Positions 2 to 35,802 of a stretch of 35,802 nucleotides of DNA are shown here, piece after piece. The stretch is from Streblomastix strix (Eukaryota). How positions within the stretch are numbered: position 1 is the first letter of the stretch; each line of letters begins with the position of its first letter. The stretch lies in assembly GCA_008636045.1 (NCBI GenBank), contig SNRW01000045.1, positions 1 to 35,802 of the forward strand. Reading direction: 5' to 3'. Made by a program: the position numbers and the translations under genes. The notes below the pieces were generated by a model, which searched no databases, was not told the DNA's origin, and worked only from the letters and a program-made list of their open reading frames with translations.

Positions 2-2062
2 TGTCATGAATGTGATAATCAAGTATGTAGTAACTGTTTCTTGAAGTGTGAGCTTTGTTAGAATGATTATTGCATTGATCATATAGGCTAAGAATCCAAA
101 TGCTATATTTGCTCGAATATGATTTGTAATAACTGCAAAACTAAATGTTAGATCTGCTAAAAGGACATATGCAAAAGTTGTGGTAAATAATGTAATAGAT
201 GTAAATATTATTTATGTTCATTATGTGTTGATGATGGCATATCTTGTTCTTATTGTGGATAAGTGACATGTAAGGTTTGCCGTGCAAAATGTCAGAAATG
301 TAATAAATTGATATGCAAAACATGCTTAGAAAAAGGAATATAATGTGAAGGATGCCAACGAAGTATTTGTTAAAAATGCATTAAAGAATGTGAAGCATGC
401 TAAAAGAAATGGTGCAGTGGGTGTGCAAGTTCTGGAGTTAGATGTTATAAATGCAGCAAAATGACATGCAGAACTTGTCATACTAACTGTCAGATGTGCA
501 ATAAGGACATTTGTACTGTTTGCTTAAGCAAAGGAATTAAATGTTCTGGATGTGATAAATTGATTTGTGAAAATTGTATAAGGAAATGTTAAGATTGTTA
601 ATAGAAGTGGTGTTCTGACCATGTAAGCATTGGAGAAAGTTGTTACTAATGCAAATAGATTATGTGTACACAATGCAAAACAAATTGTCAGATTTGCAAT
701 AAAGATATTTGCACATGATGCTTAAACTATGGAATTAAATGTGATGGATGCTAGAATTAGATCTGCCAAAAATGCATCAAGAATTGCGAAACTTGCTCAT
801 CGAGATGTTGTTCTAAATGTGTACTTACAGAATCTAAATGTCATTCATGTTAAAACATTATGTGTAAGATTTGCTTAAGATAATGTGAAAGATGTAATAA
901 AGATATTTGCAAAGGATGTTTATCAAAAGGAATTTAATGTGATGGATGTTAGAAATAGATCTGTCAAGAATGTATCAATAATTGTGAAGTATGTTCGAAG
1001 CTATGGTGCAAAGACTGTGTTAATTCTGAATCTAAATGCTACAAGTGTGATAAAATGACATGTAGAGATTGCCAAATTAAATGTTAGAAATGTGATAAGA
1101 ACTTTTGCAAAGGATGTTTGATTAAAGAAACTAAATGCTAAAAATGTGAATAGCAAGTTTATGGAAATTAAATTTAATAGAATGAAACTTCATTAGGAAT
1201 ATAATGTAAAGATTGTCTAGGAAATGAATCAAATTGCAATTCTTGCTAAAAGTTATTATGCTCTAAATGCCAAATCAGATGCTAGAAATGCGATAAGATA
1301 TTTTGCAATGATTGTTTATCCAAAGGAATAACATGCTCTTGTAATTTAAAAGTTTGTGAAGCATGCTTCAAACAATGCCATATTTGTTAGAAGAGATAGT
1401 GCAATAATTGCAACAATAATTGGATTGAATGCAAGATTTGTAAGAAATGGACATGCAAAGATTGCTTCAAGAAATGTCCTAAATGCAATGAGAATGTTTG
1501 TAAATATTGTCTTTCTAGTGGTGCAATGTGTGCAACATGCAACTAATAAGTGTGTATTGGATGCTCAAAATAATGCAATGCTTGTTCATAGAAGTGGTGT
1601 TCAGATCATGCAAACACTGGATAAACTTGTATCATTTGTACCAAATTGACTTGTTCATGTTGTATGACAAAATGCCCAAAGTGTAATAAGATCATCTGTG
1701 AAGGATGCTTAGGTAAATAAGACAAATGTAAATTCTGTAATTTGCATCTCTGTCCAGAATGTGTTAGAATTTGTCCCGCATGCAATGAGAAATCATGCAA
1801 TGATCACTATTTAAGTTCAAAGATAAATTGTAACCAATGTGGGAAAATGACTTGTAAAAGCTGCAATACAAAATGCAGTTAATGTCCATAGGATTTCTGC
1901 ACGAATTGTTTATCCAAGTGTTGTAAATGCAATAATATGATATGTGAGTCAAATAGAATTCGATGCTATAGATGCGGTGGATATTTGTGCGATAGACCTA
2001 ATTGTTGGTAATATTCTTATGCTTATAATCGTATTTGCAGAGGTGGATGCCCTCCCAGATGA
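2..2062 (+). CDS. Host cysteine-rich CxxC-repeat protein, 5'-truncated by the window edge
   Basis: Frame 2 with TAA/TAG=Q reads CHECDNQVCSNCFLKCELCQNDYC... through ~685 codons of tandem CxxC-x3-CxxC units to TGA at 2060-2062. One in-frame TGA at 716-718, where some sibling repeats have GGA. Confidence 0.8.
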
Positions 2063-2794
2063 AACCGAGTTCGGTTGCATCAAATATCAATATTTTCATA
2101 AAAACAATAAATAGTATTATGTATTAAAAATATATAATTGTGTTTAATTTTTTTTTAACTGTTTTAGAAAGTTCAATCGTTTTTTTGCTTCTTTTCAAAT
2201 ATAAGATAGTTGAGAATAAAATCAAATGTTGATTAATTAATAATTACCATAATTATCTCAACAATCCGTAATTATTTGAGAAAAATTGTTTTGGATTGTT
2301 TTAACTCACATTCTACAACTGTAACTATTTTCTTTTATTTAATCATTGATTGTAAATATTCCGCTAATATTTTTTTAATAAATTTTTATTCTAATAATAA
2401 GTCATTTGGCTAGTTTTCATGATTCCTATAATTTTACTTTTTAGTTTTTCACAAATTCACCCTTTTTCAAAAATATCGTTTCAAAATTTTAATTACATTT
2501 TCCTATGGCAAACGCTTATAATAAGAATTAATTAATTGAAGATGGTCTACTTTTTGGAGTTGATTTACGTTATTATACCAACAAAGTTGGGAGATGGGAT
2601 TTAAATGCTTTATTGGATGAATATTAAATAAGAAAACCACATGGTTATTCAACAGATTTGAAAAAACCGAGTAAAAGCGGCTGTAAAATAGCGTAAGGAA
2701 GCAAAACAACAACGGGATTAACTTCTGTAAAAATAAAGTTTGGAGGATGAGCAAAATTTAGAACGCGTAACGTCGTCGGCACGAAGAGGAGACA

Positions 2795-3133
2795 CGTGAA
2801 AATTTTGAGAATTTTCGCCAATTTGTTTAACGTAATGATTTTGATAATTTACAGTAACAACGGGAATTACCGGAATACAAAGATGAATATTAGCGAAGAA
2901 TATAAGCGGAGGAGGCTCGTGAGAATTTTGAAAATTTATGTTAGTTTGTTCAACGAAATGATTTTGATAATTTGCAGCTACAAAGGGAATTACAAGAATA
3001 TAAAGAAGAATTTTAGCTGAATGAGCGAGAAGCTGATTATAGGAATAATTTTGATAATTTACGCTAATTTCTTTAACACGATGATTACCATAATCCTTAA
3101 TCTTAAAGAGAATTGTAAGAATTTAAAGAAGAA
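2795..3133 (+). repeat. Three tandem 123-bp (41-aa) coding repeats in the N-terminal part of pPolB
   Basis: Units start at 2795, 2918 and 3041: RENFENFRQFVQRNDFDNLQQQREL / RENFENLCQFVQRNDFDNLQLQREL / RNNFDNLRQFLQHDDYHNPQSQREL. The third unit is incomplete. Confidence 0.85.
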
Positions 3134-4141
3134 TAATTAAGAAATGAAAGATACCAACGGATAAACGATGAATTTAACAATTTATCAGATCAGGAATTAC
3201 GTAAATTTAGATTACTTGATGAAGAGATTGCTGAAGAAATTCGAAAATTAGATTACAAAAATTTCAGAGAAATTAATTTTGAGGATGCTGATGCGCTGAT
3301 GTTAACAGAACCTTTTAAATAGGTATTGTTTTGAAGATAAGTTAAGAAATTTCGATAAAAATACCCGAAATTAACTGTAGAAAAAATGTATTCTAAAAAA
3401 GTAATCTGATAATTTTGAACCAACACACCATTACTATAATAATCATATTACAAGTTAAGAAGATTTGTAAATCATATTAGAAAAGTTGGTTAAATAGAAT
3501 TATAAATGAATAATTTTAAAATATCTTTTGATTGTGGTTATATTGTTGAGATAGTAAGATACGACGAAGATGGTATTCAAGAAGTATCATATGATATAAG
3601 ATATCAGTATAACAATATCTTAAATGCATTAAATCCGGAATCATTAATAGATTCGTAAGAAAAATTAGAGAAATTTATTTAATATCTTCTAGCTAAGATA
3701 ATCGAAAATTAAGTAAGAACTGTTGAAGATACTGTTACAAGGTTTGTTGCGATTGTATCAATGGTTGTTGTTGTATATCGTAACAGAGCTAGAGGTGCAG
3801 CACCAGCAGAGTTATAAAAATATATTTAAAGATAAGAAGTTAAGTTCGTTGATCATTAGAATTATAGAAATAACTGTTTGTTTGATGCATTATCATTTAT
3901 ATCATTACCGGATGAAACATTGAAACGAAAATCTAATTGTAGTAGAGTTGCTGAAGGTAAACATTTAATGAAATAATTTTATTCTGCAATTGGCAATGAA
4001 TAAATTAAGAATTTTACGGAGTTTTGTGATAATTATCAAGGATTTGATTTTGTTTCAGAAGGTAAAAAATCTTGCTAAAATATTTAATATTAATATTTGC
4101 GTTTATGCATATCATCACTTAGATTTTGAGGACGAAAAATA

Positions 4142-4372
4142 AGAGACTGCGCAAGCCCATCGCTAAATCGCAAGCGATTTTGATGATAAACCGAATCCTA
4201 TTCCTTAAATCAATTCAAAAGGCAACAGATCGCATCGTAAAAAAGATGATAGAATCAAAAATGAAACATATGATAATTATTTCCTAGATTTTGTAATTAA
4301 ACCGGTAAACAGCGATAAAGAAATGGATTTAGAGACTGCGCCAGCTCGTCGCAAAATCGCAAGCGATTTTGA
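4142..4372 (+). repeat. Two 42-bp GC-rich direct repeats, each ending in a palindrome, inside the OTU-like region of pPolB
   Basis: 4142-4183 and 4331-4372 match at 38/42 positions; both contain AAATCGC-AA-GCGATTT and translate as ETAxAxRxIASDF. Confidence 0.85.
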
Positions 4373-7300
4373 AACAACATCGGGAATTAAAGAACCAAAA
4401 GACTTTAACATATTACTTGTTCATTTCAGAAATAAGTTCCACGTTTTATATATTTCTGATACACTAGCATTAACTGGCTTAACATATTGTCCGATTTGTA
4501 AGTTACACGTAGTGAAACTAAACGATATCAGTGGTAATTAGTAACGAGATTTAAAAAGGCATATATTGAATTATGCAAATAAAACAATGATGAATTAGTT
4601 AAACCATCAGGAAATTAAATTCCTTTTGCGATACATATCACAAGAAATAAAACTTACGAATATTTCTGGTCTCGTTAAGAATTATAAAATTTTAAACCGA
4701 CGAATTATAATAGAACTTATGATTTTGAAACTATGGAAGAATAAATAAATAAATATTTTGGCAAGACAATCAATAAGGAAGACAATTCTGTCTGCAATTC
4801 AAATCAGAATTCTGCTTTAGTTCCATTATCAGTTGCATCAACATTTGAGTCAAAGAAAAGATTAAAATCAATATATTTTGAATTTAGATACAATGTTTAT
4901 TTAATACTCGAAACAAACAAATCCCGAAGGGATTCATTAGCGATGCTAATCGTTGCAGGTGAAAAAGTTATAATATAAAATTTTATCCAATAATGGCTTG
5001 AAGCATTATGTGAAGAAGCACATTAAATAAAATAAGATAATTTTTACGATGATCTGACGTTCCGTATGACATTGATGTTCCTATTTTAGGTTTTAACTCT
5101 GCACATTTAGACATGATTTTCGTATTACCATATTTGACAAGTTCTAAATGGCATATTACTAATTATCATGATGACTTCTCTCACATTAAACGAGTAGAAG
5201 TTCGCCATAAAATTACCGGTGTGAGAATTTAATTCTTAGACGCTGAATTGTTTGTAATAAAAATGAAATTTAAAGATTTTGTCAAAGATTTTGGCAAGAA
5301 ATCTAGGAAAAGAAGTGAAAATAAGGGGATATTTCCTTATACAGCATTCAACACAACAAACTATGAGGAAATTTTAAATTTAACTGAACCATTTGAATAA
5401 AAAGATTTTTTTAATGAGTTAACTCAACAAAATTTATCAAATTTTGATTATACTGATTATTTGCTGGATTAATTGATAATAATTGTTAACAAAAATGGTA
5501 AAGTTACTGATACCATTAAGAAATTTAATAATCGATGGGATTACTTATAATATTATAATGAACTTGACACATTAATCATGATAAAACCAATTGGCAACTT
5601 AATTAAAATGAATTTTAATAACGGTCTTGATATGTTTAATTACTTATCTATGGCAAGTTGCGCAAATAACACTAAATACATGATGTGTTGCAATGATTTA
5701 GGTCTTAACTCAAGGTATGTTAATAAAGATGATCAAACATTTATATAATTTACTCCATTTGAATTAACTTAAGAACATTGGAATAAAAAAGTTGCAAACT
5801 AAAACATATAAGATACAAAAGCAGGACGTTCGATAAGAGATAATGTTAAAGAAGATGACTTTGAATATTTTCGAGATAAGGTTTTTAAAGGTTAATGCTG
5901 GTTCTGTGAAGTAAGATTCACTAATAATAACCCTCCAACATTGGATAGAATAGATAATAGTCTTGGTCATAGTAAAAATAATGTATAATTAGCTTGTTAA
6001 TGGTGTAATGTTAAGAGAGGAAATAGAGATCCTTTCATAACTAAAGGATTAATATAATTGAAACGATATTATTTATCAAAAGGTTTACCAATGCCATTAA
6101 CAGATCAAGAAACATATCATAAATTAAGACCTAATATTACTGGTGGATTAGAAAATGCTTTTCATAGATACAATGTCAAAGATGAAACTCATATTAATAA
6201 ATTAAAATTCGAAGGATAATATGTTGTAAGTTATGATCTTGATTAAATTATGACATATGTTTGTGATTATGATTTTAATTCATTATATCCATCTGTTTTG
6301 AGCGGAATTCCTCATAATTTCATTAAATATACTGGTAAAAGGATTTATATGCCAGGTTATGAATTAGATAGAATAAATTGTGAAACCGAAAAATAGAAAG
6401 AATTAGGTTTGAAAATTATTAATAAATCATTAAGATTTTCCAATAAAAAATCAGATATTGATAGCGTAACTGTGTTCATTGCCGAAATCAAAGGTCATAT
6501 TGACTATAAATATATTAATGATTTTATTAATTGTCCACCAATAATTAGAAAATATAAATACAAGATTTTAGAATCTGTTATTGGAGATTTTATGCATTAA
6601 CATATGAAAAATAATGATTTGAAAACTGGTGGAGAGGAAAATAAATTAACAGTTTTATTATCTACAATGGGAAAATATATCTGCATCTATTCCTATTATC
6701 TCTGGTTACTTATTGATGATTGTCATTTTATAATTGATGATGTTAAATGTGTTTTGACATTCTCCAAACACATTGGTTTTGAATCATTCGTTAGGAAATT
6801 TATGTAATAACGTATTTATTCCAAGATTGAAGGAAATTCTGGAGATGAATAATTTAGTAAAATTACAATGAATTCATCTTATGGAAGTGATGGTATGAAT
6901 TAAGAACATTTCTCAGATATAATGTTATGCGATATACATGAAACATTCAGGAAACATCTCAGTTGTAGATTCAAAAGTGATCGTAAACTAGGAGATAACT
7001 TATATGCTGTTGAGTTTGAATAAAAAAAAATTAATTGTAAAACATGCTTGTATGTTGCATTTGCTGTGATAGATTGTGCAAAATATTGGTTTATGAACTT
7101 CTATTATAATTTCTTAACTCCTATGGTTGATATGAATCGAGTGCATCTTATATATTGTGATACAGATTCTATGATGTTAGCAGTTGCTGATGATCCAAAA
7201 TAAAATTATTAATAAGGATTCTCTGCTGTGATTAAGGATAAATAATTCAATGATAAAAATTTCTATAAGTTCTTCCCAAAATCTAAGTAAATAATAATTT

Positions 7301-7813
7301 AAGAAAATAAATGCTGCAAAGGTAAAATAAAAGAGTTGCAAATATATGATGACAAAAAACCATTGAGAGTTGCGTATGAACATTGTGGTTCAACTATTAT
7401 AGCATTAGAACCAAAGAATTATCGGTTATGATAAGAATTTGATACGAAAGATCCAGTAGTTATTAAACTTAAAGGAATGAGTTTAAAATTGAATCCATAA
7501 AATAATAAAGATGTTTATGAATACAATGTCAAAAAAAGGAAAGATAGTTAAAGGTAAGAATACTTCGATAAGATTACAATAAGAAAGAAATTCTGAAGAT
7601 GAAGTATTCAATAAGATGAGTAGAATTAATACTACTAAGAATGGAATAACTGGGATTCATACAAAAATGATTGTATTAGAAAATAAATGCTGTTGCCCAT
7701 ATATTGATGGAATAACTGCATATTAATATAAAATTTAATATAAGATGTTGATGCCACCGGAATGAAAATTAATAAAAAATATTTATAGTATTATTTTTGG
7801 AAATTAAAATTTT

Positions 7814-9212
7814 ATGGCTTAACGTAATTTACGCACTCGTAAGAGTAAATCTCCAGCATAAATTCTTGACGAATTACTCAAACGATTTGATAAAACAAAG
7901 AAATAAATAGAAATTGCAGAAGATTCTATGAAATTATCGATATTAACCTTTTTAAAATAACCTCGAAGATTGAATCTTACAGAATTTGTTGATGAAATTC
8001 AAATTCAAGATATTGACAATGAAATTCCTGTAATTATTAAAAAAATTGATAAGATTCAATTCGGTGGCAAGAATATTTAGGATTGATTTGATGATTATAT
8101 TGCAATGGAATTATTGAAAGGCAAGAAGAGATAAAATATCAGATTGCCAGCGGAAAAACCCTCCGAACAATTATACTCACGAAGTGATTAAGCCGCATAA
8201 GCGACATAAATATAATTTCCATTCAAATCCGAAATAAAAGTATATGAATAAGTTCATGGAATTAAATTGAAATAAGAATATAAAACATTTTCAATATCAA
8301 TTCCTGATTATTAAATTAATTAACTTCCTGAAAAATTTGGTAGACCGTATTTCTCTTATGAATTTGGTAGCTGGGAGATTGATGTTGTATTTTCTATGAA
8401 TCCTGAGTTAGTACTGATTAATTAAATTTATTTATTCTGTATCAACATCAATACCAAATATCTTGTTGTATATCCATTACATAGTAAATCTTAGGAAGAT
8501 ATTGAAAAATCATTGTAAAATTTGGTTTAAACCTAGAATGTTACGCATATCAGAGGAGATTGTGAAAAAGGATTTGCAAGTAATTAACTTATGTAATTCT
8601 ATAATAAGAATGACATTAAAACTTATTTTGTGAATGGTTCACGGGAACCAATTTCATTGGCAGAGGTGAGCTAACGCTCACGGCAACTAACAAATCATAA
8701 TCGCGTTATAGATTCTGTAATAAGAACTATTAGAAATGCTTTTAGATAAGATGACAGGCCATTTTCAAATCCAATGTTAATGTAATTAATGGTTGATCTT
8801 TACAATGATACTCCTCACAGTACATTTGATAATAAATTTAGTCCGAAATTAGTCAATAATTTAAAAGAATTTGAATGGATATTTCATAAGAAAGAATGAT
8901 AAGAAGCTTCGTGAAGTGAGATAAGATTAATAAAATTAAGGATTTACTAAATATAAACCAGGAAATATTTTAATGATTCATGTTGATTATTTACGTACAA
9001 TGCATCGATACATGAAATAAAGAAGAAATTTCAATGATCTAGCCAAATTTATTAAATAGGATAATGGAAATGTTGAATGATTATTATTAAAACCATTTAC
9101 GGATTTGGATAAGTTAACTGTACCGATATATTATACAAAATTTATCTGTGAAAATGAATAATAACAAGATTAACCATAATTTAAAAAATTTAAAGATAAA
9201 TTTTTAAATTGA
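7814..9212 (+). pseudogene. Retroviral-type (rve) integrase of the Polinton c-integrase kind
   Basis: ATG 7814; SWEIDVVF, YLFCININTKY, IRGDCEKGF (D at 8558), NRVIDSVIRTIR, YNDTPHST; C-terminal KYKPGNILMI. In-frame TGA at 8084 and 9078; frameshift near 8885; TGA 9210-9212. Confidence 0.88.
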
Positions 9213-9312
9213 TTTAATTATATTAAACTTATTCTTCTGTGAAAAATTTATTTTTGAAAAATTCCAAATATAAAATTGAAAAGGGATTGGTTTAATAAAT
9301 TGTACTTGAAAC

Positions 9313-9754
9313 ATTGGCGGCAGTTAATAAATACCTCAAATATAAATAAAACCTAAATTACCGAGCAATGCGGAGCATATAAGTTCGCAGACAGAGAAGA
9401 TCGTTGCAAAAACTTCTAAACAACGTGGAAGATAATTTAAATTTCAAACAAAAGAATAAGCTTAATAAGTTGCAAAATAATATAAAAAAATAATATGCAA
9501 TTAAATACGCAAAGTAAAAATAATATTTTAAATAAAATTAATCAGATTCCTAATAACTTCTCATAAAAAGATTGTAAAATATGATTATAACAGATTCCGC
9601 AGAAATCGATAAAATGCATGAAATAGTAAATTAATTTGATTCAATTTTAAATAAAAATGATGCTAAGCCTATTGAAGATGTCGAGTCTGCGCAAAGCTAC
9701 TCATTACATTCGCGCTCTAAAGAGTCGTAGCCGATGAAATCGGAAAAAATTTGA
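9313..9754 (+). pseudogene. Remnant of a small basic viral protein, possibly DNA-binding
   Basis: Code-6 reading gives KQRGRQFKFQTKEQAQQVAKQYKK, a frameshift in an A-run at ~9490, and TGA 9752-9754. Start codon not found. Confidence 0.4.
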
Positions 9755-9768
9755 AAATGAAATTCAAT

Positions 9769-10741
9769 TCATTTTTTTTAACGCGTTTCTTTTTCTTAAT
9801 GTTATATTATTTCTTTGAAGATTATAGTAATAAACTTGTTGGAATATAATTCTTTTTTGTTTTTTGGTTTCTTTTCCTCAGGTGTTATTTTTGTATTTTC
9901 TTTCTTGACAACTGCAGATATTGAACCATCTGCATTCATCCACCAACCAGTTTTTTGAGTTTTGAATTATTTTCTATTAAATAAATCATTTACTGGCCTT
10001 CTACCACAATCCAATGCTCCAACATCATAGATTTATGCAAGATTCTCCTATGAAACAAGTTCTTTTTCAATTGCTTATTATTGTTTTTCTATGAGTTTCT
10101 CCTGCATTAACTGCATAGTAGGCTGAATATCTTCTAATATTGAACTTTATCCACGATCTGATTAAGTTTGAATATCGTAAAAATCATCTATTCTTTAATT
10201 TTCCTTTTCTTTTTAATTATTCGAACCTGAATACTTAATCTCATTATTTATGTATTCTAAACTTAAAACTGGTGAAAAATGTCCTAAATATATAGATGGT
10301 TCAGCGAATTTAGCATTAGGATTATACGCATATCGTTATGAGTTCTTTATACATTTTTCTGTAACTAGTTTCCCTTCGTTATTTAACATCATTGCATTCT
10401 CAAGAAATTCTGATCTTAAATCTTCACCAAAGTATTAACTGTAGGATTATCTATTCATTGTTTTGCTAGTTTAACCTATTACTCCTACTAATACTTCATG
10501 TGGAGCAAATCCTGGATCAGTTGCACGAATTTTATCTACAATTCTTTATTTTTATATTTCACCCATATGTTTTTTTAAGTGTAATTCCTTAATTTTTCAA
10601 TATTTATGGAACTTTTGCGATTTAATTAAGATCAACATCTTCACCCTCAATAAATATAGTACCTCTTTATGTCATGTCTTCCTAATATGTATTAGGCATT
10701 GCATCAGCAGATATTGTTTGTTTTTTACCTTTCTTTGACAT
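9769..10741 (-). pseudogene. Viral hypothetical protein, ~320 aa
   Basis: ATG 10741 (MSKKGKKQTISADAMP); one frameshift in a homopolymer at ~10572, then open to TGA at 9771-9769. Confidence 0.7.
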
Positions 10742-10780
10742 TTTGCTTTAAATTAAATACAAAGTGAGTATAAAACAAAT

Positions 10781-10897
10781 ATGACTATGCGTTGGGATTT
10801 ATTAGTAGGTATTTCATCGTGCATATTACTCGTAGTACAGATCGCTAATCTATCTAAACCGACTTCGTCGGCTTGCGCTACGCGTAAACAAAAATGA
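10781..10897 (+). CDS. Putative 38-aa peptide with a hydrophobic N-terminal segment
   Basis: MTMRWDLLVGISSCILLVVQIANLSKPTSSACATRKQK*; divergent from the 10741 gene; its 3' part is encoded by a double hairpin. Confidence 0.35.
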   Translation: MTMRWDLLVGISSCILLVVQIANLSKPTSSACATRKQK

Positions 10898-10940
10898 GCA
10901 GAAAATGCGCAAAAAATTATTTTTCAAATAACTAAACCAA

Positions 10941-11165
10941 ATGCTAATTACTGTTGAAGAATTTCTTGTTTATTCCAATTTTTTAAGTTCATTGTTTTGT
11001 GTTGCAACAAAACCGGATCCATAAATTGAATTAAGATTTATCTTAAGACAATACAATAAACGACTTAAAATGGAATAACTCAAGGAAATCATTAAGATTG
11101 CATAAGAAACAAGTGGATAAGAGGCATCATTAAAATTGAAATAATTACTCAAATATAAAAAATGA
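10941..11165 (+). CDS. Viral hypothetical protein, 74 aa
   Basis: Uninterrupted code-6 ORF MLITVEEFLVYSNFLSSLFCVATKPDPQIELRFILRQY...LLKYKK*. Confidence 0.55.
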
Positions 11166-11206
11166 ATTAGGTTGCTTGCATATTTATTTTTGATTGTTGT
11201 TTAAAG

Positions 11207-12689
11207 ATGACGTAACTTGGTTTATAAATTATATGCTGTGACTCAGATACTGAATTCGTACTATGGAAAACTTCTGTTCCAAGTGGTTCTAACTCGTTTC
11301 AAGTGAATTCGCTAAATAATATGCCAATTAATCTTACTTATTACCTGAATCAAGATTATCTTGAAATATAACATAACATGAAATCAACTATTAATAAGAA
11401 ATACTATGAATAAATATCGAATTCAAATGGGACTTACAAATTAATTGGATTAACCGAAATTCCACTAATAAAAATAAATTTCAATATAACAATCAATAAT
11501 AGATTCACAAACGAATAGAATTATCAAGGATATTAATATGCACCATTAATAATGGCTATAACAACAGCGTAATAAGATGAATTCGTTGATACATAAGAGT
11601 AATACTTCAGAACTTCAAATACAAGTAATCGTGGTGCAATCTGTTTTAATAATGCTGTTAATGAACATTTTCAGAAATTTGCAGATAGAAAATTCTCATT
11701 GAACATTAATGATGGATAAGATATTGTATCTTCTGCAATTAACTACATAAATCTAAGAACAGTTTCGTTTCTTTATAGATATTTTATGCTAAGTGATGGT
11801 TGTTTCTATAGATTTATTGGTATAATTCGTTTGTATTGTCCTACATTCAATAATTTCATAACAACTATTGAACCATTCTTGACAACAGTATCAGTGCATT
11901 CCGTAAAAATAAGATATTTACATGGAAAATAATATAATATCAATGACACTTAAACTATTTTTGAATTAATTGCATTGCCGATGAATATTTAGGATACTTC
12001 TAAGTAATCAATCATAAACAGTTTCAATGCATTCCTAATAAGGATAATTTCATCATTCCTTGGTTAGAATTCTTATGACTGGGATATTATATACACTGCT
12101 GTTAATAGATTTTTGTATTATATTTAGTATATCCCAGATGTATTAACTTAGTTTTCATCTATGAATTAAGTTTCAAACGCATAATTGTTAATGTAACCTA
12201 AAAGAATTGTAGTATCACCTAGATTATTCATGTAAATTAACAGGTGAATTAGATTTGTATGACGGATTATATGAGAATGGTGCAAATTCTATTGTAAATA
12301 ATTCGTTATCGGTGAAATTCATTGATTTGGAAATTTGGTATTATAAATCTGAATTTAATAACTAGAGTTTTCTTGCTGATACTCTAATTTAATGTCCATT
12401 CATAGGAAATTTCGAGTAATATCCTCAGATGCTTATCATAACAATTTCAAATTAATTGTAGGGTATTACACTGTAAGGAATTGGTGGTTAAGGATTCTCC
12501 AACGTATGTTAAAAGTAAAATCTAATTGGTGCACCTGTATTATGGGGTTAGAATATGTTATCTTAGAAATGTAATATAGGATAAAATAAATCAGTTATAT
12601 TTACGTTGTATGATAATTATGGTAGAAAAATACCTAATTAATTTATGGATAAGTACAATAATTTATTGTTGGAAATACAAACTTAATGA
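11207..12689 (+). pseudogene. Putative minor capsid (penton-like) protein, ~490 aa
   Basis: ATG 11207; beta-rich composition; C-terminal VIFTLYDNYGRKIP (12594-12635) resembles the hxhxLxDxxGxxI motif of Polinton/virophage minor capsid proteins; one frameshift near 12240; TGA 12687-12689. Confidence 0.65.
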
Positions 12690-12732
12690 CTGCGCTCCCC
12701 GTCGCCAAACTTCGTTTGGGGGAAAATCAAAA

Positions 12733-13446
12733 TCAAATTAAATCACAATCTCTGAATTAAATTTCCTAAACATACTCTTACTCCTATTTCTAAACAGGAT
12801 TAGGTTTCGGCAGCTTCGCTGACTCGAGTATTGCTCGCTGTTGTTCCTATTCTTCTTAATACTTCTTTTATTTATAACATTTGATTTTTGCTTTGTATTT
12901 TTCGATTTACTTTACTGAATCTTGATGTTATTGCTTAATAAACGAGTTTTCAGTACGTAATCTTATTAACTCTTCTAAATCGACTTATGGTGAAGTATAA
13001 TTTATTTGTGGTTTCTTTATCGTTTTCTATGGAGTTGGCTTTGGAGTTTTCACGGGTTTTTCGATTATAGTTTATTTAGTCTCTTCATCATCGCTGTATA
13101 GCAATTCAGTTTACTGAAATTTACGTTCGTTTTATGAAAATTCGTCATCTTCTTCATCCAAGTACTAACTTCGATAACGGTCCAATTTCATTGGCGACTA
13201 GCTTCGCCTAGTCTCTAGAGACTATTCAATTTAACATTTTGCCGCACGTTTTGGTTTTGTTTAACCTCCGCCTCGTGCTTCCAATAACAATTTAGTTTAT
13301 TATGCTTGAGTCGGAGTCCATACAGATTTCTTTCTTTCTTCATATACTTTGATCTTATCTTTGACTTACATAATATATCCATCATTGTAGTATTCAATTG
13401 GTGTACCGTTTTCCATGAGATTTTTAAGTGTTTTTGCTTGATTCAT
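12733..13446 (-). pseudogene. Viral hypothetical charged/low-complexity protein, ~235 aa
   Basis: ATG 13446 (MNQAKTLKNLMENGTPIEYYNDGYIM); open to TGA 12745-12743, or to 12735-12733 via a likely frameshift near 12880. Confidence 0.65.
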
Positions 13447-13518
13447 CCTGATGTCTGATTTGATTTATATTTAAACTCGCAACTTTAAGTTGCAACCAAA
13501 CCGAAACGTTTCAAAATT

Positions 13519-15339
13519 ATGTCAACAATATAAACAAATCAAATTAGAGTTCATAAAAGCAAACATGCGAGTGTTGTTAAGAAAGAATTATCAGAATAAG
13601 ATAAGACGAGATTATAAGCCATTGATGACGCGATTACAAATGGTTTTAAGAAAGCAATTGAAATACCGCCGCTTTAAATTCCACGGAACCAGCTCTAACC
13701 TATATTTTCACATAAACTGAGCAACGTGGGGACCGAACATGTTTAATCCAGAGATTTAATAATTAATGAACAGAAGGAATTCTAAAGAGGAATTTAAGCT
13801 GACCGTCCACTACGAGCATACAATATTCATAAATATAAAGAGATTGTTCGTGAAACAGCTTAGATTGAACCATAATAAGTTGTAAAGGATGCACACTTAT
13901 CACATCCTAACTTAGAAGTATAGATATTCATTATAGATACAATTTGGAGATATGTTGATTATCGTAAGAATGGTGAAGATTTTAAATTTAACTCGGATAA
14001 TTATATCAAACACTGGGCATTGATAACATTAGAAGAAGAGAAAGATATTATGGTTGTTATGGAAGAACTACTGATGAGATATAATAGTTATACTTCGAAA
14101 AAATACTAGAAGTAAGAGATTGTAAGAGTGGATAATGTACATATAAAAAATGTTTCAAATTCTAATATAGTTAATGTATTATGGAATAGTATTGAGAAGT
14201 TGTATAGGGTTAATAAGGATTTCGTTAGATTTTCTGATAAACTAGAATCAGATATTGGACCTGATGATTTTTGATGAAGATACATATGATTTATTGTTTA
14301 TTTTTGTTGAAAACCAGTGGAAGCAACTTCGTTGCTGAAGGCTACGCCTGAAACCAATGAACAAATAACCGATCTTATTCCGCCATCAGAAGAAGAACTA
14401 AGAGAAATGTAATTAGAATATGAGAAGATGAAGAAATAATAATTAGAAATAGAATCATTATAGAAGTTGTAAAAATAAATAACTTAATAAATAGATAATG
14501 AAATTATAAAATATTTTACTTATTTTAGTTAATACATTAAGAAAATATAAGTAGATTTATCACACTTAGTAACATTAAACACAGCTTAAACTATTACTGG
14601 AACTAAATCATTTACGAATCAAGTTACAGCATAATCTTTTAAAGAACCAGATGGTACTAACTAATAAATTATGCTTGCAAATGGAACGAATTTGAATCAT
14701 TTTAAATTTAGACCTTATTATGATGCTGAATGTGTTGATGGTATAAGAATTTCCAGATATTTAGCAAAATAGACATTGGATTAGAATTCTAGCATATATC
14801 TTGGCTGTTCTAATACTTAGGAAAGTGGTGCTATAAGTGGATAATGGTCAATAAGAGCAAGTAAATTAAATACTTTATTAATTCATCCGAGTAATGATTC
14901 ATAACATGGATTAGCTATGATGAGTGATAGATTAATGTTTAATGATCTCGTAATTTATCCGTCAACTTTATTAACCAGTTATTGTAGTTCAATAACTTTG
15001 AATACAAATGTTTCAATTCCATCAAAATTTTCTACATAATTCGTCTATAAATGGTAAAATATGGTGTTTATTAACATGGTTGTAACAATATATGAGACAT
15101 CATTCAGTTAGAAAGTAGTTACATTAAGCATTCCATAAGATATTAGACCAACATTAGAAAAATAATATATTCCACTTTAAGAAATTTCTATTTCATAAGG
15201 TTCTGCTTATCCAACGAATGTTTTATTAAGAATTAATGGTCCAACTGATGGTTATTACTGGTAAGTATGAAATAATCAAAAATAAAGTTGGGCAACAGGA
15301 AATTCTGTTATAATTAATGGAATGTACTCACTTTAGTGA
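13519..15339 (+). pseudogene. Fibre/receptor-binding-like protein 1, ~600 aa (possibly two genes)
   Basis: ATG 13519, open to 14274. Two apparently compensating indels (~14270, ~14311) join it to a coiled coil, the fibre-like motifs VTLNTAQTITGTKSF (14569-14613) and TAQSFKEPDGTNQQIMLANG, and a head-like C-terminus (YKWQNMVFIN...IPQDIRP...INGMY). In-frame TGA 15268. Confidence 0.65.
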
Positions 15340-15722
15340 GCAGGCAACGAAGTTGCGTATTGCCTTTCAACTTGAGACATTATCATATGTTTTAAGATTC
15401 TATAATTTCAAATACAGAATGTATCTTCACATCTTAGCAAGTTCCTCATCTTATTTTTCAATTATTTCTTTAACGAAATCTTCTATTTATTCATTTTTAT
15501 ACTTAGACCAATGGAAGTAAGAATATTTTTATGATTCTATGCCTTCATTCGTCGTCAGACGTTGTATTATATTTTAGGTTCGTCGACGATAAACAAACTG
15601 AAATTTATAGATAATTATATTCAATGGAACAAAAAGCCACATCAAAATAACTTCATAACTATTTTATTAATGCGATTATTTATGTAAGTTATTCAGGAAT
15701 AGATAATAAAATTACGGATACT

Positions 15723-16862
15723 ATGAAGTTAACACCATAAAATATAGAATTAATTATTAATATTAACAAATTCATTTGTTTATTTAGTAAATAACGTTAT
15801 CCGAGATATAATCCGTAACATTTACTGACAATTCTATGTTAGATGAATGCAAATCAAAGCCATTGACAAGAAATTCATTATTCTTAATCAATGGCAATCA
15901 CTATATATAGTTGGTGCAGTTGATTCAGGAAAAACTTCTTTATTAAATAAACTGATAGTAACCTATAAATAATGAATTAATCCATTTATTTTATACTTCT
16001 CCAACTTTGGTGCTGATGAGACTATGACATTGAATCTAAACTCGAAGAATATCGTATTAACCATCATAACTTATGAAGAAGCAATATATTTCTTACCAAA
16101 TTTTGATGAAATCAAGTATATGGTAAAAGAAATCTATACATATTGGAAACTAAGAGAAGTTAACATCCCTTTTAAATCCGATTTCATACAAAGAATGAAA
16201 GAAAGAATATCATTAACTAATGTAATTAAAGAGATTCCTGCATCACTTCGTTCCTTGTAAGTGCGTTCGGCATAACTAAAGTAATCTTAAAAAGACTATG
16301 TAAAACGAATTGCATATTTATTTTAATAAGGATATATCAATATAATTATCAAATATAGTGTTCCAACAAAAATAATGAGATTTACAATTCAAGCAATGAT
16401 TCAAAATGTTTAATTCGAAAAAAACTAAAAATCGAACTATAGTATTATTAAGCCGACGCTGAATTAAAAGTAATAAAAATTTCAATAATATTTCATAGTT
16501 CACTGTTAAATTCGCTGTTAATATTTGATGACATAGGAAGTAATGCTGATATTTAAAGATTCTCTTCACGATTAGCTAGAATAATAACTCATTTAGTTTC
16601 TGACAGTAGACATAGCAAAAATACTGTGTTCTTTGTTGCATAACGGCCAAGTTACTTGTTCAAAACAGCAAGAATATTATCTCATGTTATGTGTTTAGAG
16701 GTTAGTCTATCAGAATTTGATTTAAAACAAGCTTATGAAGAAAATTCTATACAGAATCTTGATTTTGATGAGTTTATGTTATTGTATGGAACTCTGAATA
16801 AATATGGGTTCATAATACTTAATAAATGGGAATCACGTTATGAGATCTTAAAGAATGAATGA
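15723..16862 (+). pseudogene. A32/FtsK-family DNA packaging ATPase
   Basis: Walker A GAVDSGKTS 15913-15939; Walker B LLIFDD 16515-16532; A32-type SRHSKNTVFFVAQ and KTAR motifs. Frameshifts near 15820, 15905 and 16310; in-frame TGA 15973. Confidence 0.88.
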
Positions 16863-17991
16863 ATGACAATTAAATTCATGACAGATTCTATATTTGCATA
16901 ACTTCCAAATGGCGCAGGCAAAAATCTTGAGTTAGTAATAGATCTAAGTTATTCGTTCTTTGATTTAATCAGATTTCCAATATTTGATGCATTATTCAAG
17001 AAAATCATCAAGTTACAGTAGTTAATTATCAGGAAGTAAATATTAATTAACAGTTGATGACTAAAACTCATTAATATATGCGCCAATAGATGATCCTTAA
17101 AATTTTGCTGTGAAACTGCAAACAAATGGTGTTATGACATTGAAGAATATAAATTTATTAAATAATGATTTCCTAGCAAAAATAACTGCATTAGAATAAG
17201 AAGTTAATTTAATATAATAGACTTTGGTAACTGCAACTTAAGATATTGGTGGTTTATAATAATAAACTTATGTAATTAATGAAGAACTTTATAGATAAAC
17301 ACATTTTAGAGGATACTATTTATTGAACACAGATATATAATAATTAGAAAACTATGCCAATGGTGATTTTGCATTCTCAGCTGAAAGTGGAACAGTATGG
17401 ATGTATGATAATAATTGGTATAACAGTGGAGATATCGTTCCTGATTAAGTAACTCCTGCAAGTGATGCTATTCCATTAACTGATAGTGAAAATGGAGATG
17501 CAGGAACTTCAAATGAGTATTCTCGTGGAGATCATAAGCATCCACTATAAATATCTGATGTTTTACCAAGTAAAGATACATCAATTGGTACTGTTGGATT
17601 AGCTAGTTATTATGCTAGATCTAATCATTAACATCCAATTCAGACTATAGATACTACTCCAGTTAGTGATACAGCAGATGGATCATATGGTACAGTTGAA
17701 TCATACGCTAGAAATGATCATTCACATCCAATTAATGTCTAAACCAATGCTTCAATTGTACCTATAGTTAATGATGTTGGAAATAATGGAACTTCAGCAT
17801 ATTATTCAAGAAATGATCATGTTCATCCACAATAATTAACTTATGATGGAAATGTAACTGCTACTAAATTTATTAAATCCGGAGGATTTTCTACAGAAAT
17901 TCTATGTGCTAATGGAGATACAACTGCAATATCAACTATGAAGATAAAGATTTAATAAGAACAACGATATCACCACTAAAAATTCTGTTGA
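16863..17991 (+). pseudogene. Fibre-like protein 2 with HxH repeats, 3'-truncated
   Basis: ATG immediately after the ATPase stop; frameshift near 17020; coiled coil; FRGYY...NGDFAF...GTVWMYD; four HxHP repeats; TATKFIKSGGFSTEILCANG; fibre-like sequence ends at ~17933. Confidence 0.72.
17503..17829 (+). repeat. Four 31-33 aa coding repeats, GxxxxY(S/A)Rx(D/N)HxHP
   Basis: First His codons at 17533, 17626, 17719 and 17818 (spacing 93, 93, 99 nt). Confidence 0.9.
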
Positions 17992-18374
17992 GTTAAAATA
18001 AATAAGATTCATAACATATATTACTTAAGGAATTAATAAGAATTAATAAGTAATTCACAACATAATAGAGTAAATTATAGTTAATTAAATAATTTGTTGA
18101 TGATGAAGACTATAAGAATAAAATATATGGTGAAAATAATAAATACTATACAAATGAATATAATCAAATCAAGAAAAAGATGGATTTGAATCGATAACTA
18201 TAATTGATAAAGAAACATATTATATCTAAAGCAACTGATGACGAAAAATAGATGTATAATTAATTTGTCATGGATGTAGATAATCAATTATTATGTCGAT
18301 ACTACCAACTTCATTAGTTGGCAAGCAACTCCGTTGCCTTGTAACTGATGCAATTAAGCGTATCTAAATAATGA
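17934..18374 (+). pseudogene. 5'-truncated viral hypothetical protein
   Basis: Open code-6 frame NYEDKDLIRTTISPLKILL... to TGA 18372-18374, with no start codon at the junction with fibre 2. Confidence 0.5.
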
Positions 18375-18578
18375 ATATAATTTATTATATCTTACGTTTT
18401 ATCAAGAATAATTCCAAATCTATCATTATATTCTTACTTTTTTTTATTCATGGAACTATTTTTACTCACCATCTAATTCCTTATCATCAATAAGTGCTTC
18501 AAATATTTTAAACACATTATATTCAGATGCGTTATATATTTTTCCAAGAGATTACGCAAGTTAATCCAATTGCTCCAT
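18311..18578 (-). pseudogene. Small viral hypothetical protein, ~89 aa
   Basis: ATG 18578 (MEQLDQLAQSLGKIYNASEY); frameshift in the homopolymer at ~18440; 3' end overlaps the convergent ORF across a hairpin. Confidence 0.45.
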
Positions 18579-18623
18579 CTTTACGTTTAGATTTTGAAAA
18601 ATAATTATACAACAAAATATTAA

Positions 18624-18830
18624 TCAGATTTTATTTAAGTATGAATCTACTTTTCCAGCAATGTTTCCAACTGTACCCATAATTCCTCCCATTCCAGGAT
18701 GTAACGTACTTACTGGACCAGCTAACACACCCATTACTTTACTTAATATTGGCGCAACCCAATCCGCAGTTTTCTTAATACCATTAAATATCTTGGAACC
18801 AAAATTTTTCAATCCTGTGAAGAATCCCAT
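18624..18830 (-). CDS. 68-aa amphipathic, putatively membrane-active virion peptide resembling the adenovirus protein VI helix
   Basis: Intact ORF MGFFTGLKNFGSKIFNGIKKTADWVAP...; head-to-head with the putative major capsid gene; N-terminal Met-Gly. Confidence 0.7.
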   Translation of the reverse strand: MGFFTGLKNFGSKIFNGIKKTADWVAPILSKVMGVLAGPVSTLHPGMGGIMGTVGNIAGKVDSYLNKI

Positions 18831-18918
18831 TGTTGTAATAGATTTATTTACTTGTATGTGGATTTGATTAATAATAAAACTTACCCGCTGTTTTAAATCA
18901 TAACCAAATCAACGTAAC

Positions 18919-20250
18919 ATGAGTCTCTCAGCAAGTGCATATGTACAAAAATTTGCAAATGCATAACATTCAGATTACATTTCCATATACTCAGCACTAA
19001 ATGAAGTATTGAAAGCACAATCAATAAATCCTTAAAGTTTCTCAATAAGTAGATAACAATTCTTTGACTAACTCGTAACATAACTAACAGGTGATTGATA
19101 ACGATTTCCACGTGCACCATTAGGTGCTAGAGGCACTGATATATGTTCAATGGTATAAACTTGTTAGGTAAATTGGTAAATAACGATTCCTGGAGAAAGA
19201 TTAGCATTATAAATTAATCAGGCTGCTTTAACTGCAATAACTGGTACTGATGCTGAATAAAAAGCAGCTGCATTACCAAGAACAAATTTCACAGGAAATG
19301 CTGATTATTAATTTGATTATGCTCGAACTATGGCAGCTGGAGCTGATGGTGATACATAATAACCATATAATACTTCAGAACATATCAAATTATGGTTTGA
19401 TTTTTCAACTGCGTGTGGTCAATTTTAATAATTTGCTATTTGTTAAGATAATACAAAACTATGGGATACGTCAATCTATGCAAGAGAATAAGCAGTGATC
19501 TCAGCAAATCCATTATCTGATTTATGTATAAATAATTCAGTGAGCGTATCACCATTGGAATCAATAGTCGCTGGAAAAAGATATTGTGGAATATTTATTG
19601 ATATCCCAGTAGCAGCATTCAATGGAACAGCAGGTGCTTTCAATTATAAAATACCATATCCAATAACATTATCAGGAGTACTTGATTTAAATTAGTTAAA
19701 TCCAATTTTCAATTCATTTCCTGTTCTAACACACAATTATGTATCCTTATATCTATAGTTATGGACATAAGATTTCTTATAAGATCTGAAGATTGTTAGG
19801 TTAAACAAGACAAACATAGTAACAAATGAACATTTTGCATATTAAATGATACCACCAGAAAAACCTGATATAATATTCCTAAGAAATCGTGATAATGTTG
19901 CTTATAATATATGTACTGTTAGAATTGTTATTATGGAAGGAAAATAAGTGACTGAAAAATTTCCTACGAATACGATTTCACAAATAAAAGATGCAATATT
20001 TGATAAATTAGATATAAGCAATATAAGTTTCAATATGGAGAATGAAGAAGCAATTATAGATCTAATTCGAGCTCAAAAAATAATTAACTTCCCAATATAA
20101 GTCATTCGTACTTAATCAATAATTTTTCTTTTCAGTGGCTTTGATGAAAATGAAGGAAGTTTATAGAGTATAATGTCATTTGCTAATATCAAAGCAATAT
20201 ATATGACATTTGAAATGAACTAATATCTATCATGGTTCTTTCCTGTTTTA
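18919..20250 (+). pseudogene. Putative major capsid protein, 3'-truncated
   Basis: ATG 18919; >440 codons in one frame with one in-frame TGA (19096); beta-strand-like, Gly/Ala/Pro-rich. Called from context and composition, not from a recognised homolog. Confidence 0.55.
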
Positions 20251-20256
20251 TTTCTC

Positions 20257-23118
20257 ATTCATCTATTTTTCAAGTCTAATTTTCAATATTCCAATAAGAT
20301 CTGATTATGTTAATATCTTTTGAATTTTTTTAGAAGATGTATTGGAATGTGAGAATTAATTATTGTCTTTCAATATGTTATTTAATGGCATCTATCAGAT
20401 CATATCCAGAATCAAGAATATGTTCGCGCATTTGATTCATTTCTCCATAATCTATTCTTGTTAATATTATTAAATATTAAGATTTAATAATAAATTATAA
20501 ATATATAATTATTCATAAAATATAAATATAAAACATACAAGTTCGCATGGATGGCATCATTTGAATCTCTTTTTCATTTTCATCAACTGGTAATAATTCA
20601 ATCAGTTTTTATGAGCGAGCAGAAAGACCTTGCATATGATCAACATAAGGAAAGATATTCAAAAGAACATCACCTGAATTATTAATAATATTAAAATGAG
20701 TTAAAATTAACGAATTTAATAAAATATAAAATTATTTACAAGTTTACTAAAATTAAAAGAAAATAAATAAAATTATTTATGAATAATCAAACCATCAATA
20801 ATTAAACAACATGCAATTGTGATGATCATCATCAACTTATCAGATATATTAACTATACTCACTCCAGAGTCCGTTATTTTAGTTGTCAACACGTCCATAC
20901 CTTCACGTAAGTCATATCGAATGGCTGAGATAACAAAACGAATCTGAATGAATATGAATATAAATATAAATAAAATTAATGAACAAGAAAATATAAATAT
21001 TATTCCATTAATAGAAATAACGAAACTATAAAGACCAACTTCATTCATCTTCTCAGTAATCTTACCAATCGGTGATTCCAGGAGCTGCATCACATACAAC
21101 CTCATTCTTGACACAAGATCAGATACTCCATATATTGGAGGAGTAACTTAGAATACTCTATCTGCACTCGCTGATGTGCATTCATCATCCTTCAATAAAC
21201 ACTTTTATTATTCAAACATGAGATCGTCGTTGATACTTGGACTCATTCTTCCAGATGTTATCTGATCTATTAGTTCATCCCCTAGCAATGTGTATCAACT
21301 TGTCCCAAAGTGTGTGTCCATGTGCAGTTTGTTGAAGTAATCTGATGCTTTGTTTGCGACTTGGAGGAGGAGCTTACGATCTGTTGTTACATGTGAGTCA
21401 TCCTGCCAAACTGGAGTGAAACGATGAATAAAGAAAAAATATGATATATAATGAATATAAAAATTCTAAAAATATGATGTAAAATAAATAAATAAGTAAT
21501 ATACTGGAGTTAGTTGTAGTTGGAAAAATAATATGATCAATTGGTTTGACACAGGAATAATTAGTGACCACGCTTTAAATAATTAAATTAAAGATTAATA
21601 AATAATCAAATTTATCCTAAGTATCAAATTTTAACAAATTAATTTCAATTAAAACAAACCTCAACAAGAAGAATTATATCTGTGAAGGAGATGGTAGCCT
21701 CATTCCAGATAAAAGTATATTTGAAGGTGCCAATGAATAATTCTCCACAAATACAACAAGAAGAATCAATTAAGTCATAAAAACAACGAAAATGATCACA
21801 GTTCCAATTGTCATGTGAATGTAATCTTTCTTTTCAACTACTGATGAGATTTTGTTATAGTCAGCCTAATTGATATAATTTAATATATGAGAAAATAATG
21901 AAAGAATAAAAATCATTAGCATAATTGTTTAATTTTAAATATATTTAATATATTCAAATATTACTATTCAATAATTTTTATTTAATTTCACACTTAAAGC
22001 TCATTAATCTGTTATTCCAATTTCTTTTCCCAAATATCATCATCAATCTTATTTCTAACATAACCCAACTACTCTTATTCTTTTGCACTCTGTTTCTTTA
22101 CTCCATCTTCATCCATATTATCATCATCTGATTCTTATCATTATTCATCATAATCTTCTGATCCATCTGAACGATTCTTCCTTTTTTAATTCTTATGATA
22201 ACCATGTTCATGATGGTGGATGAAATTACTGAGAAATCCATGGTGTGTTTCATTTTCTTTATCATTACTATGATTTTTGTCTTTTTTTTATTTTTATTTT
22301 TATCGTGATCTTTTTCTTTGATACTTTTTCTATCTTCTTCTTCGTCATCATGTTTATCTATTTTTGATTTCAATATTGCTAAATTTTTTTTTCTTTTACT
22401 TTTTCTTTATATTAATTCATTTAATTCTACATTTGAATTTTACATTTGCTTCTACAAATACATTTATTATTGTATCATCATTTGTGGATCAATTCGCATC
22501 ATTTATGGATTAATAGTCAAATGAAGTGATTGCAGTTGAAACAATTGGAATAAATAATACACGGATTACTGGAGATACAAGCCACCGCTTTACATAGATT
22601 ACCCATGGTTATTTTGTCACTATTTCTTTATACTGTAATGCACAAACTCCATACACTATAATGCAACCACCGATGATGATTAAGAATCCAACTGCCATAA
22701 ATACTTCGTTCTTTCCTATTATAAGCCCAACTGAGGTGAGATTTATAAAATTCAGACCCTAAATAATATAAATATGTAAATAATTAATAGGAGAAAATAA
22801 AAATAAATTTAAATTTGTGCAAACATAAGAAAGAGTGGTTTGCAACTCGGTTTCATGGTCAATTCGGAAGAACCCAAGTGTAGTCAGCATTAGAAAGTTC
22901 AAAAACCAGAATATTAGTTGCATGCTCGCATGGCAGCGCTTCTCAAGAGGATAAAGTGGGAAAAGAAAACCATAAAGAATCTCTTGACCTTTGCTCAGTT
23001 GATTTCCACCTCCTCGTTGTCCAAGTGCAGCTGTGCTCCCTTGCGAGCTCACACTCTTTGTTTCATCCCGTGACATTTCTCTGAAAAATTATTTAAAAAT
23101 TAATTAACTAATTTATAT
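20257..23118. repeat. Direct segmental duplication of ~27862-30075 plus ~35201-35802
   Basis: Long co-linear identity including introns, e.g. 20773-21440 vs 28376-29030 and 22516-23110 vs 35206-35800. Confidence 0.92.
20270..23076 (-). pseudogene. Internally deleted paralog of the TmcB/TmcC-like gene at 27874-35767
   Basis: Highly similar 5' exons and 3' exons are joined at ~22515, lacking ~5 kb. The join is out of frame (SFD then TGA within a few codons). A TCA>TGA nonsense change lies at 21297-21295. Confidence 0.85.
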
Positions 23119-23380
23119 AACAATATAAACTCAAGGGAATGAATAGAAACTAAAATTTAAAAAATTGCGGCAAATTTAAACGAAATAGAATTTATTTTAT
23201 TTTCAATTTATATATTCATTGTTGAAAACATATTTTTATTGATTAATTATTTGTATTTATTAGTAATGATACCTGTACGCTGATTTCAATCAACCCCAAT
23301 TCGCTGTAAAGTTATTCAAATCTAACCTTAAAGCATTCCCTGTTTTTAATAAATATTGTTGCTTCAAAAATTTTAATGTG

Positions 23381-23641
23381 TCCATTGAGCTGATTGCAAC
23401 TCGGCGAGGGCAGCATGAATATGAAAGTATGAATGTTGCTGTAGCTGGCGAAGGTCTGAGAAGCGAAGATTCCGAAAGGAGATGCGGCGAAAGCTGCGTT
23501 GCTTGAGCAAGAGAAACAAACACAACAAAAACAAATACAAATTTATGCAACTAATAATTAATTTGGATCTTCACGCATTGCTTAATTGCTATGCTTGGTT
23601 CATTCTGCACTGACAACACGATTCAGATTACAGTTCAAGGA
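23381..23641 (+). ncRNA. Nuclear (eukaryotic-type) RNase P RNA
   Basis: CR-I GAAGGUCUGAGA (23450-23461) and CR-V AACACGAUUCAGAUUAC (23615-23631) form P4. P1 UCC(A)UUGAGCUG/CAGUUCAAGGA; P3 hairpin with internal loop; P7 AAGCGA/UUGCUU; P8 and P9 with GAAA loops; P10/11; CR-II AGAGAAAC; CR-III-like UGGAU; CR-IV-like AAUUGCU. Confidence 0.92.
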
Positions 23642-35767: not shown

Positions 35768-35802
35768 TTCTCTGAATAATTATTTAAAAATTAATTAAAT
35801 AA

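Follow-up and report, generated by a model that had tools for sequence, protein, structure and literature searches.

The window analysed here comprises 35,802 nucleotides (positions 1 to 35,802 of contig SNRW01000045.1, GenBank assembly GCA_008636045.1) and carries a real, decayed Maverick/Polinton-like virus of about 18 kb, and the present copy is dead and could not work alone. Taken as a whole, we are confident in reading it as a broken, right-truncated genomic copy of a DNA virus of Maverick/Polinton-like type, likely an integrating one, whose oxymonad host is likely Streblomastix strix and which uses TAA and TAG as glutamine codons and likely belongs to a capsid lineage apart from the catalogued one. 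The host is very likely S. strix, probably a termite-gut protist, and DNA of the window is also found in termite gut metagenome runs of two studies; no RNA dataset appeared among the runs that carry it, a result without bearing on expression. An original prediction, made from the sequence of the window without database searches, had described an endogenous Polinton-like virus with a virion module, and the homologies of the polymerase, integrase and ATPase genes and the predicted folds of the capsid proteins bear this out. Its guess of an oxymonad host agrees with the database relatives of the major capsid protein (MCP), the best 120 of which, out of 322, are all labelled S. strix (49–83% identical). 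The element and the genes that define it (aa, amino acid residues) are:

2430–20246: decayed copy of an endogenous Polinton-like virus; its left edge is approximate and its right end cut off
2747–7765, plus strand: pPolB pseudogene with 123-nt repeats, putative terminal-protein region, vOTU-like motifs, exonuclease, endonuclease VII/HNH insert and palm A/B/C; at least six breaks
7814–9212, plus strand: rve/DDE integrase pseudogene; TGA at 8084 and 9078, frameshift at about 8890
11207–12689, plus strand: likely minor capsid protein (penton), a single jelly roll that is built from strands of both termini and holds a large insert; frameshift near 12240
14311–15270, plus strand: possible fibre 1, with a coiled coil, one fibre-like motif at 14581 and a beta-rich head; start uncertain
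15847–16862, plus strand: A32/FtsK-HerA-like packaging ATPase pseudogene; Walker A at 15913, Walker B at 16515, Arg finger at 16605; TGA at 15973 and frameshifts
16909–17991, plus strand: possible fibre 2, with four His-x-His repeats at 17524, 17617, 17710 and 17809
18624–18830, minus strand: intact amphipathic peptide of 68 aa and candidate for a membrane-lytic entry protein (pVI/cupiennin-like)
18919–20246, plus strand: MCP pseudogene, predicted double jelly roll; TGA at 19096, ends at residue ~440 of ~649

On the left side, the summed contig depth of one run climbs from about 25–55 to 297–1169 across 2421–2513, with loose ends before 2430, which puts the edge at about 2430 instead of the 2505 given originally; depth serves here as a hint to the boundary only and is not copy number. 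On the right side, a duplicated host unit starts at 20247, where the MCP gene breaks off. The search for terminal inverted repeats and a target-site duplication, which had been recommended as a check, was run on the window and detected neither the repeats nor a 6-bp duplication, the right end of this copy being lost. The GC content of the element is about 0.25–0.33, and its genes stand close together in a single block of consistent orientation and use the code uniformly. Most of the long genes hold stops or frameshifts, and the claim that their fragments merge when TAA and TAG are read as glutamine did not hold: even under genetic code 6 (TAA/TAG = Gln), TGA codons or frameshifts persist in pPolB, the integrase, the ATPase and both capsid genes, at the positions listed.

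The code-6 translation of the polymerase gene matches a PHROG DNA polymerase family (E 4e-11), has palm motifs at 6265, 6859 and 7153, and gives a second PHROG match, to endonuclease VII (E 1e-11), at the insert around 5830–6030; a vOTU-like Cys at 3869 and His at 4437 lie upstream of the palm. The predicted pPolB is thus present, though broken. Pfam DNA_pol_B_2 gave no match, and PDB sequence searches with pPolB, the integrase, the ATPase and both capsid proteins were empty or non-specific. The assignment to the protein-primed type is a putative one that rests on architecture, the order of terminal protein, vOTU, exonuclease and palm (TP-vOTU-Exo-Palm) having been read by inspection. The accessible part of PMC11161782 describes this layout, together with homing-endonuclease inserts, for polinton polymerases, and since both layout and insert match, the gene appears to encode a Maverick/Polinton-like polymerase. 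At its N-terminus lie three 123-nt repeats (2786–3140), units of which are skipped or repeated in other copies. The integrase has acidic residues near 8372, 8549 and 8702 (D,D,D, with Asp at the usual Glu position) and matches IS30 DDE (E 2.8e-4) and Pfam rve (E 0.0011, under the curated cut-off), in line with the rve integrase of the original prediction.

The 18919 gene is predicted to encode a double jelly-roll MCP. Its product aligns over residues 1–440 with a full-length 649-aa relative from S. strix (P0002, 83% identity). When the AlphaFold model of P0002 (predicted local distance difference test, pLDDT, 47.8) was searched against the PDB with Foldseek, all 11 matches at E ≤ 0.001 were double jelly-roll capsid or scaffold proteins, among them those of iridovirus, mavirus and Sputnik and vaccinia D13, and the BFVD and VIA lists were dominated by the same class at low TM and Z ≤ 6.3. 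The fold test is therefore clear for the MCP, as the relative's model matches only capsids and scaffolds of this type. The 11207 gene is likely a penton gene. Its product is 72% identical to an S. strix protein; six relatives occur in S. strix, one of which neighbours a capsid gene according to its locus tag, and four are metagenomic, and it is homologous to the open reading frame (ORF) 7338–9443 of the metagenomic locus L009. With the model of this intact L009 relative (pLDDT 41.9), VIA ranked Sputnik chain N, which we take to be the penton, first of 48,161 chains (Z 6.6, root-mean-square deviation 5.1, 132 residues aligned from both termini), followed by PBCV-1 and EhV chains (Z 5.5) and the mavirus penton (Z 5.3). 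Viral leads from the Atlas include PF21507 V18-19 on 10% of one cluster. The fold test for the minor capsid protein is thus moderate, and jelly-roll folds are predicted for both candidates of the original prediction on low-confidence models of relatives. Beside these, in the S. strix protein P0125 a kinase domain is joined to part of the 11207 gene, and this protein is probably a chimeric product of gene prediction at the scar of an insertion.

The Walker A, hhhhDD, Arg finger and Gln sensor of the ATPase are conserved with the relatives in the metagenomic loci L003, L005 and L009, of which that of L009 matches a PHROG packaging ATPase family (E 1e-5). These motifs sustain the predicted A32 ATPase, and an A32-specific profile gave no match with it. 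The claim of two fibres stands in part, as fibre-like motifs are present in both genes and no named library entry was matched: fibre 1 matches only PHROGs of unknown function, and fibre 2 has no library match. A protein of L009 with a motif similar to that of fibre 1 matches a PHROG tail protein (E 3e-5). Homology of the window fibres to those of L005 and L009 was considered and rejected as not significant (z ≤ 2.4). The amphipathic peptide has a hydrophobic moment of 0.5–0.58 over residues 4–33, and relatives of 68–77 aa occur in L003, in L009 directly after the MCP and in L005 in two copies (z 16.5 to L005). With its profile, residues 40–51 of adenovirus pre-pVI were reached at E 6–8, which is not significant, and cecropins at E 0.03–0.5. 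The likeness to protein VI thus consists of an N-terminal amphipathic helix aligned over 12 residues with the part that is described as membrane-lytic in the portion of PMC8310329 available; in contrast, the peptide has 68 aa versus 250 aa, its helix lies at the extreme N-terminus and cecropin scores as well, so convergence is possible. The entry role is a predicted one and homology to pVI is unproven. The entry genes are also less unusual than had been proposed, because adenovirus pVI and the cupiennin-like membrane-active small proteins of Beta adintoviruses (accessible part of PMC8502044) are precedents.

Re-translation with table 6, another check recommended at the outset, raised the number of open frames of at least 100 aa in the window from 7 to 174. 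The longest has 792 aa, but 30 shuffles of the AT-rich element gave a mean of 386 and a maximum of 746 aa, and ORF length was rejected as proof of the code. Since it is weak evidence, homology was used to test the code. The capsid gene has 28 TAA/TAG codons, and 11 distant relatives (use of the standard code was checked for L009 and is assumed for the other ten) carry Gln in 24.6% of the 236 cells aligned to them. The share is 3.9% at other codons (3822 cells) and 7.5% at CAA/CAG (67 cells), and this enrichment supports the proposed code. Moreover, TAA and TAG make up 209 of 251 Gln codons in 10 ORFs of the element versus 91 of 153 in 2 host ORFs (p 2e-7). These codons are too numerous for decay after insertion, because the capsid gene is still 83% identical to its relative, which suggests that the lineage was at code-6 equilibrium prior to the decay of the present copy and fits the idea of a lineage long adapted to this code. 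A metamonad host and elements written in the host code, traits of the Metamonada group, are both found here.

A profile search of 1.84 billion representatives with the MCP gave 212 matches (150 listed), and the ten long distant ones are metagenomic or NCBI proteins, three of them on contigs of about 20 kb. A motif scan of metagenomes led to four loci (L003, L004, L005 and L009) with family MCPs that are 25–32% identical to P0002; the other five of the nine loci from this degenerate-pattern scan were chance matches and were discarded. MCP, ATPase and amphipathic peptide occur together in the intact standard-code loci L003, L005 and L009, and the minor capsid protein in L009. Besides MCP and ATPase, L009 has the 11207 homologue and a tail-like protein, while the partial locus L005 has a long tail-like protein and a primase-SF3 helicase in place of pPolB. 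A second pair of major and minor capsid proteins is found on contigs with the matching lengths of 14030 and 11571. A quick MCP tree confined to this family covers 14 of the 120 S. strix matches, 9 distant proteins, 2 loci and the window. In it, the S. strix rows, 15 in all, form one long branch (Shimodaira-Hasegawa-like approximate likelihood ratio test, SH-aLRT, 100) apart from the 11 others; the tree is rooted by midpoint only and does not give the direction of the code change. No relative was found in IMG/VR with six protein queries and one DNA pattern or in a metagenome scan with the alignment A1, and a search of GenBank phages gave no match. An adenain-like maturation protease had no match in the window or in the partial loci L004, L005 and L009, all incomplete. 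An Atlas search with protein P0121 gave aspartic proteases at 0.76, a result below chance level that was rejected. Two further observations concern these loci: in L009, three tandem paralogous ORFans of about 200 aa lie between the ATPase and the penton-like gene (5380–7293, plus strand), and in L005 the MCP is adjoined by a fibre-like protein of 1400 aa (8487–12689, minus strand) that has a Gp10_C domain of phage baseplates (E 1e-11).

Several points weigh against the reading given at the start. Both capsid models are of low confidence, with TM-scores of 0.13–0.29 and VIA Z values below 8, which are common according to the tool, and both folds belong to relatives and not to the broken genes of the window. 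For the minor capsid protein, unrelated beta-sandwiches tie with pentons in the VIA ranking, and BFVD gave nothing at E ≤ 0.001 (best E 0.22). The putative integrase falls short of the Pfam cut-off for rve, and no A32 family profile was matched by the putative ATPase. The host codon sample consists of 2 ORFs, and the element is also more AT-rich at Leu codons. As for a separate lineage, the MCPs of this family and those already catalogued seem by eye to show a faint common pattern, and the accessible part of PMC10120064 does not include the S. strix rows of Table S5, while 150 of the 212 profile matches are listed, so that the family may overlap with the 820 published hits.

Code-6 endogenous Polinton-like viruses of S. 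strix were already published in 2023. Bellas et al. (2023, PMC10120064), in the part accessible, report that they use code 6 and that their 820 MCP hits all fall into cluster 40 together with trichomonad and Entamoeba MCPs; the S. strix MCPs of this cluster have about 545–562 aa and are about 32% identical to the trichomonad copies. It is the only paper on Streblomastix elements found in the accessible literature, subscription papers aside. The novelty implied in the original prediction thus falls away, and so does the remark that such elements are easily missed by gene calling, as hundreds of S. strix relatives and the 68-aa peptide of the window itself are already on record in NCBI. What is new here is probably the capsid lineage plus its standard-code relatives. 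The published Metamonada-group Maverick-Polintons and Polinton-like viruses of S. strix share with this element the host, the code, the endogenous state, a double jelly-roll MCP and a high copy number, and as all S. strix matches in the accessible part of that paper lie within one cluster and the two MCP types look faintly alike, the element could be merely one of the 820 counted and hold nothing new. We regard this as unlikely. The MCP here has about 650 aa versus about 545–562, and, for a cluster defined at 25% identity over 30% of the length, the indirect tests connect its sequence with neither cluster 40 nor DUF4106: the best 120 of the 322 MCP relatives include none of the 8 cluster-40 locus tags of S. 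strix that are visible in the source, none of 53 family members matches Pfam DUF4106, the Trichomonas vaginalis MCP family, at E ≤ 0.1 (its presence in the Pfam copy is unconfirmed), four cluster-40 motifs occur in none of 279 fetched proteins, and five motifs of the present family are absent from the visible supplement text. Furthermore, cluster-40 proteins match trichomonad contigs at about 32%, whereas no trichomonad protein is among the matches listed here or, by name, among the 10 distant full-length relatives examined, and by these indirect tests the nearest outside relatives are standard-code metagenomic elements, not trichomonad or Entamoeba elements. It is therefore fairly probable, judging from sequence comparison, that the ~650-aa MCP family represents a second, uncatalogued lineage separate from cluster 40.

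The element might also be a chimeric relic in which a pPolB-integrase transposon was joined, by recombination or misassembly, to the capsid module of another element. Depth by part is roughly 1,000–5,000 on the left versus 13,000–52,000 at 12.8–18.7 kb, L005 combines the capsid module with a primase-SF3 helicase, and no metagenome contig examined spans the element; but depth is not copy number, the genes are tightly packed in consistent orientation with uniform code use, and module swapping is normal among Polinton-like viruses according to the part seen of bioRxiv 2026.06.19.733378, which makes a chimera quite improbable. The high-depth part, 12788–18763, is several-fold above the polymerase, the minor capsid protein and the MCP and peaks over fibre 2, where the depth is the highest of the element; its genes may be common to other S. 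strix elements, e.g., the published family. A virophage-like parasite of a giant virus, retained as a genomic defence, would explain why mavirus and Sputnik are among the best structural matches of both capsid proteins, and mavirus likewise carries pPolB together with rve. However, these likenesses are weak and no better than those to other double jelly-roll viruses, with proteins of iridovirus, PBCV-1 and poxvirus scoring equally well, and a maturation protease was not found in the window or the partial loci L004, L005 and L009. The polymerase also keeps the exonuclease region that is largely lost in mavirus (PMC11161782, accessible part), and a virophage is highly improbable.

A Maverick/Polinton virus of the class Polintoviricetes, such as the adintoviruses (PMC8502044, accessible part), is another close comparison, sharing pPolB with vOTU-like motifs and a homing-endonuclease insert, rve integrase, ATPase, MCP, a likely minor capsid protein and a small amphipathic peptide; the differences are that no adenain-type protease was found, that no terminal repeats or target-site duplication are left in this copy, that the host is a protist and that the capsid has no detectable sequence similarity to Pfam families. 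In intact members, the rve integrase would insert the linear genome, the protein-primed polymerase would copy it while its vOTU protease would free the terminal protein, and the A32-like ATPase would package it in a capsid built of double jelly-roll capsomers, with pentons at the vertices and with fibres. The short amphipathic peptide may then break the endosomal membrane at entry, like adenovirus pVI. The homologies of the genes, the code, the breaks, the truncation and the many relatives are observed; the integration mechanism, the virions and the roles of fibres and peptide we infer.

In the available part of a 2026 preprint (10.64898/2026.06.19.733378), replication-module swaps are common and metamonad elements are left ungrouped, metamonad Polinton-like viruses being unplaced with more genomes needed. 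We can tentatively imagine, though we doubt it somewhat, an undescribed lineage of small double jelly-roll protist viruses missed by current capsid profiles, of which one branch is wholly recoded to TAA/TAG = Gln and has multiplied in Streblomastix to hundreds of copies alongside the known family, the sister branches keep the standard code with swapped replication modules, and all possess a minimal stand-alone homologue of the pVI helix, which would point to a pre-adenovirus origin of this entry device. A second S. strix capsid lineage, if true, would lift the viral share of the genome above the published estimate of 10.8%, and matched standard-code and code-6 relatives would be available for studying how a virus tracks the stop-codon reassignment of its host. 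In addition, the conserved 68–77-aa peptide offers a candidate for an entry protein of Polinton-like viruses that is small and open to direct testing.

The several ORFans of the original prediction are present, and are listed here with the adjoining host unit:

2505–2750, plus strand: 81-aa ORFan; no relative among 16 proteins of L005/L009
9368–9754, plus strand: basic coiled-coil-like ORFan without family match
9769–10700, minus strand: frameshifted ORFan without significant family
10905–11165, plus strand: 86-aa ORFan
12733–13446, minus strand: 237-aa ORFan, charged and rich in proline with coiled coils, perhaps a core protein; resembles L009 11703 weakly (z 3.2, out of 224 pairs compared)
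13519–14274, plus strand: 251-aa ORFan; weak likeness to L009 889–1737 (z 4.1, one of 224 pairs tested)
20247–22481: host duplicated unit, not viral, 91% identical to 27851–30061; abuts and cuts the capsid gene

On the left, the element is adjoined by one or more cysteine-rich host ORFs (2–2062, plus strand) with 198-nt repeats, CxxC patterns and no Pfam match, which were rejected as part of it because their depth is at flank level. On the right, a host gene in several pieces (26109–27570, plus strand) has no Pfam match at E ≤ 0.03 and is presumably SPRY-like, in the manner of such oxymonad families. The host part of the window (20247–35802) also contains tandem duplications, in which 22508–23111 resembles 35199–35802 (94%) in addition to the pair of 20247–22481 and 27851–30061, and the duplicated host gene, on the minus strand, encodes a large membrane protein that carries TmcB TPR repeats (E 2.5e-17).

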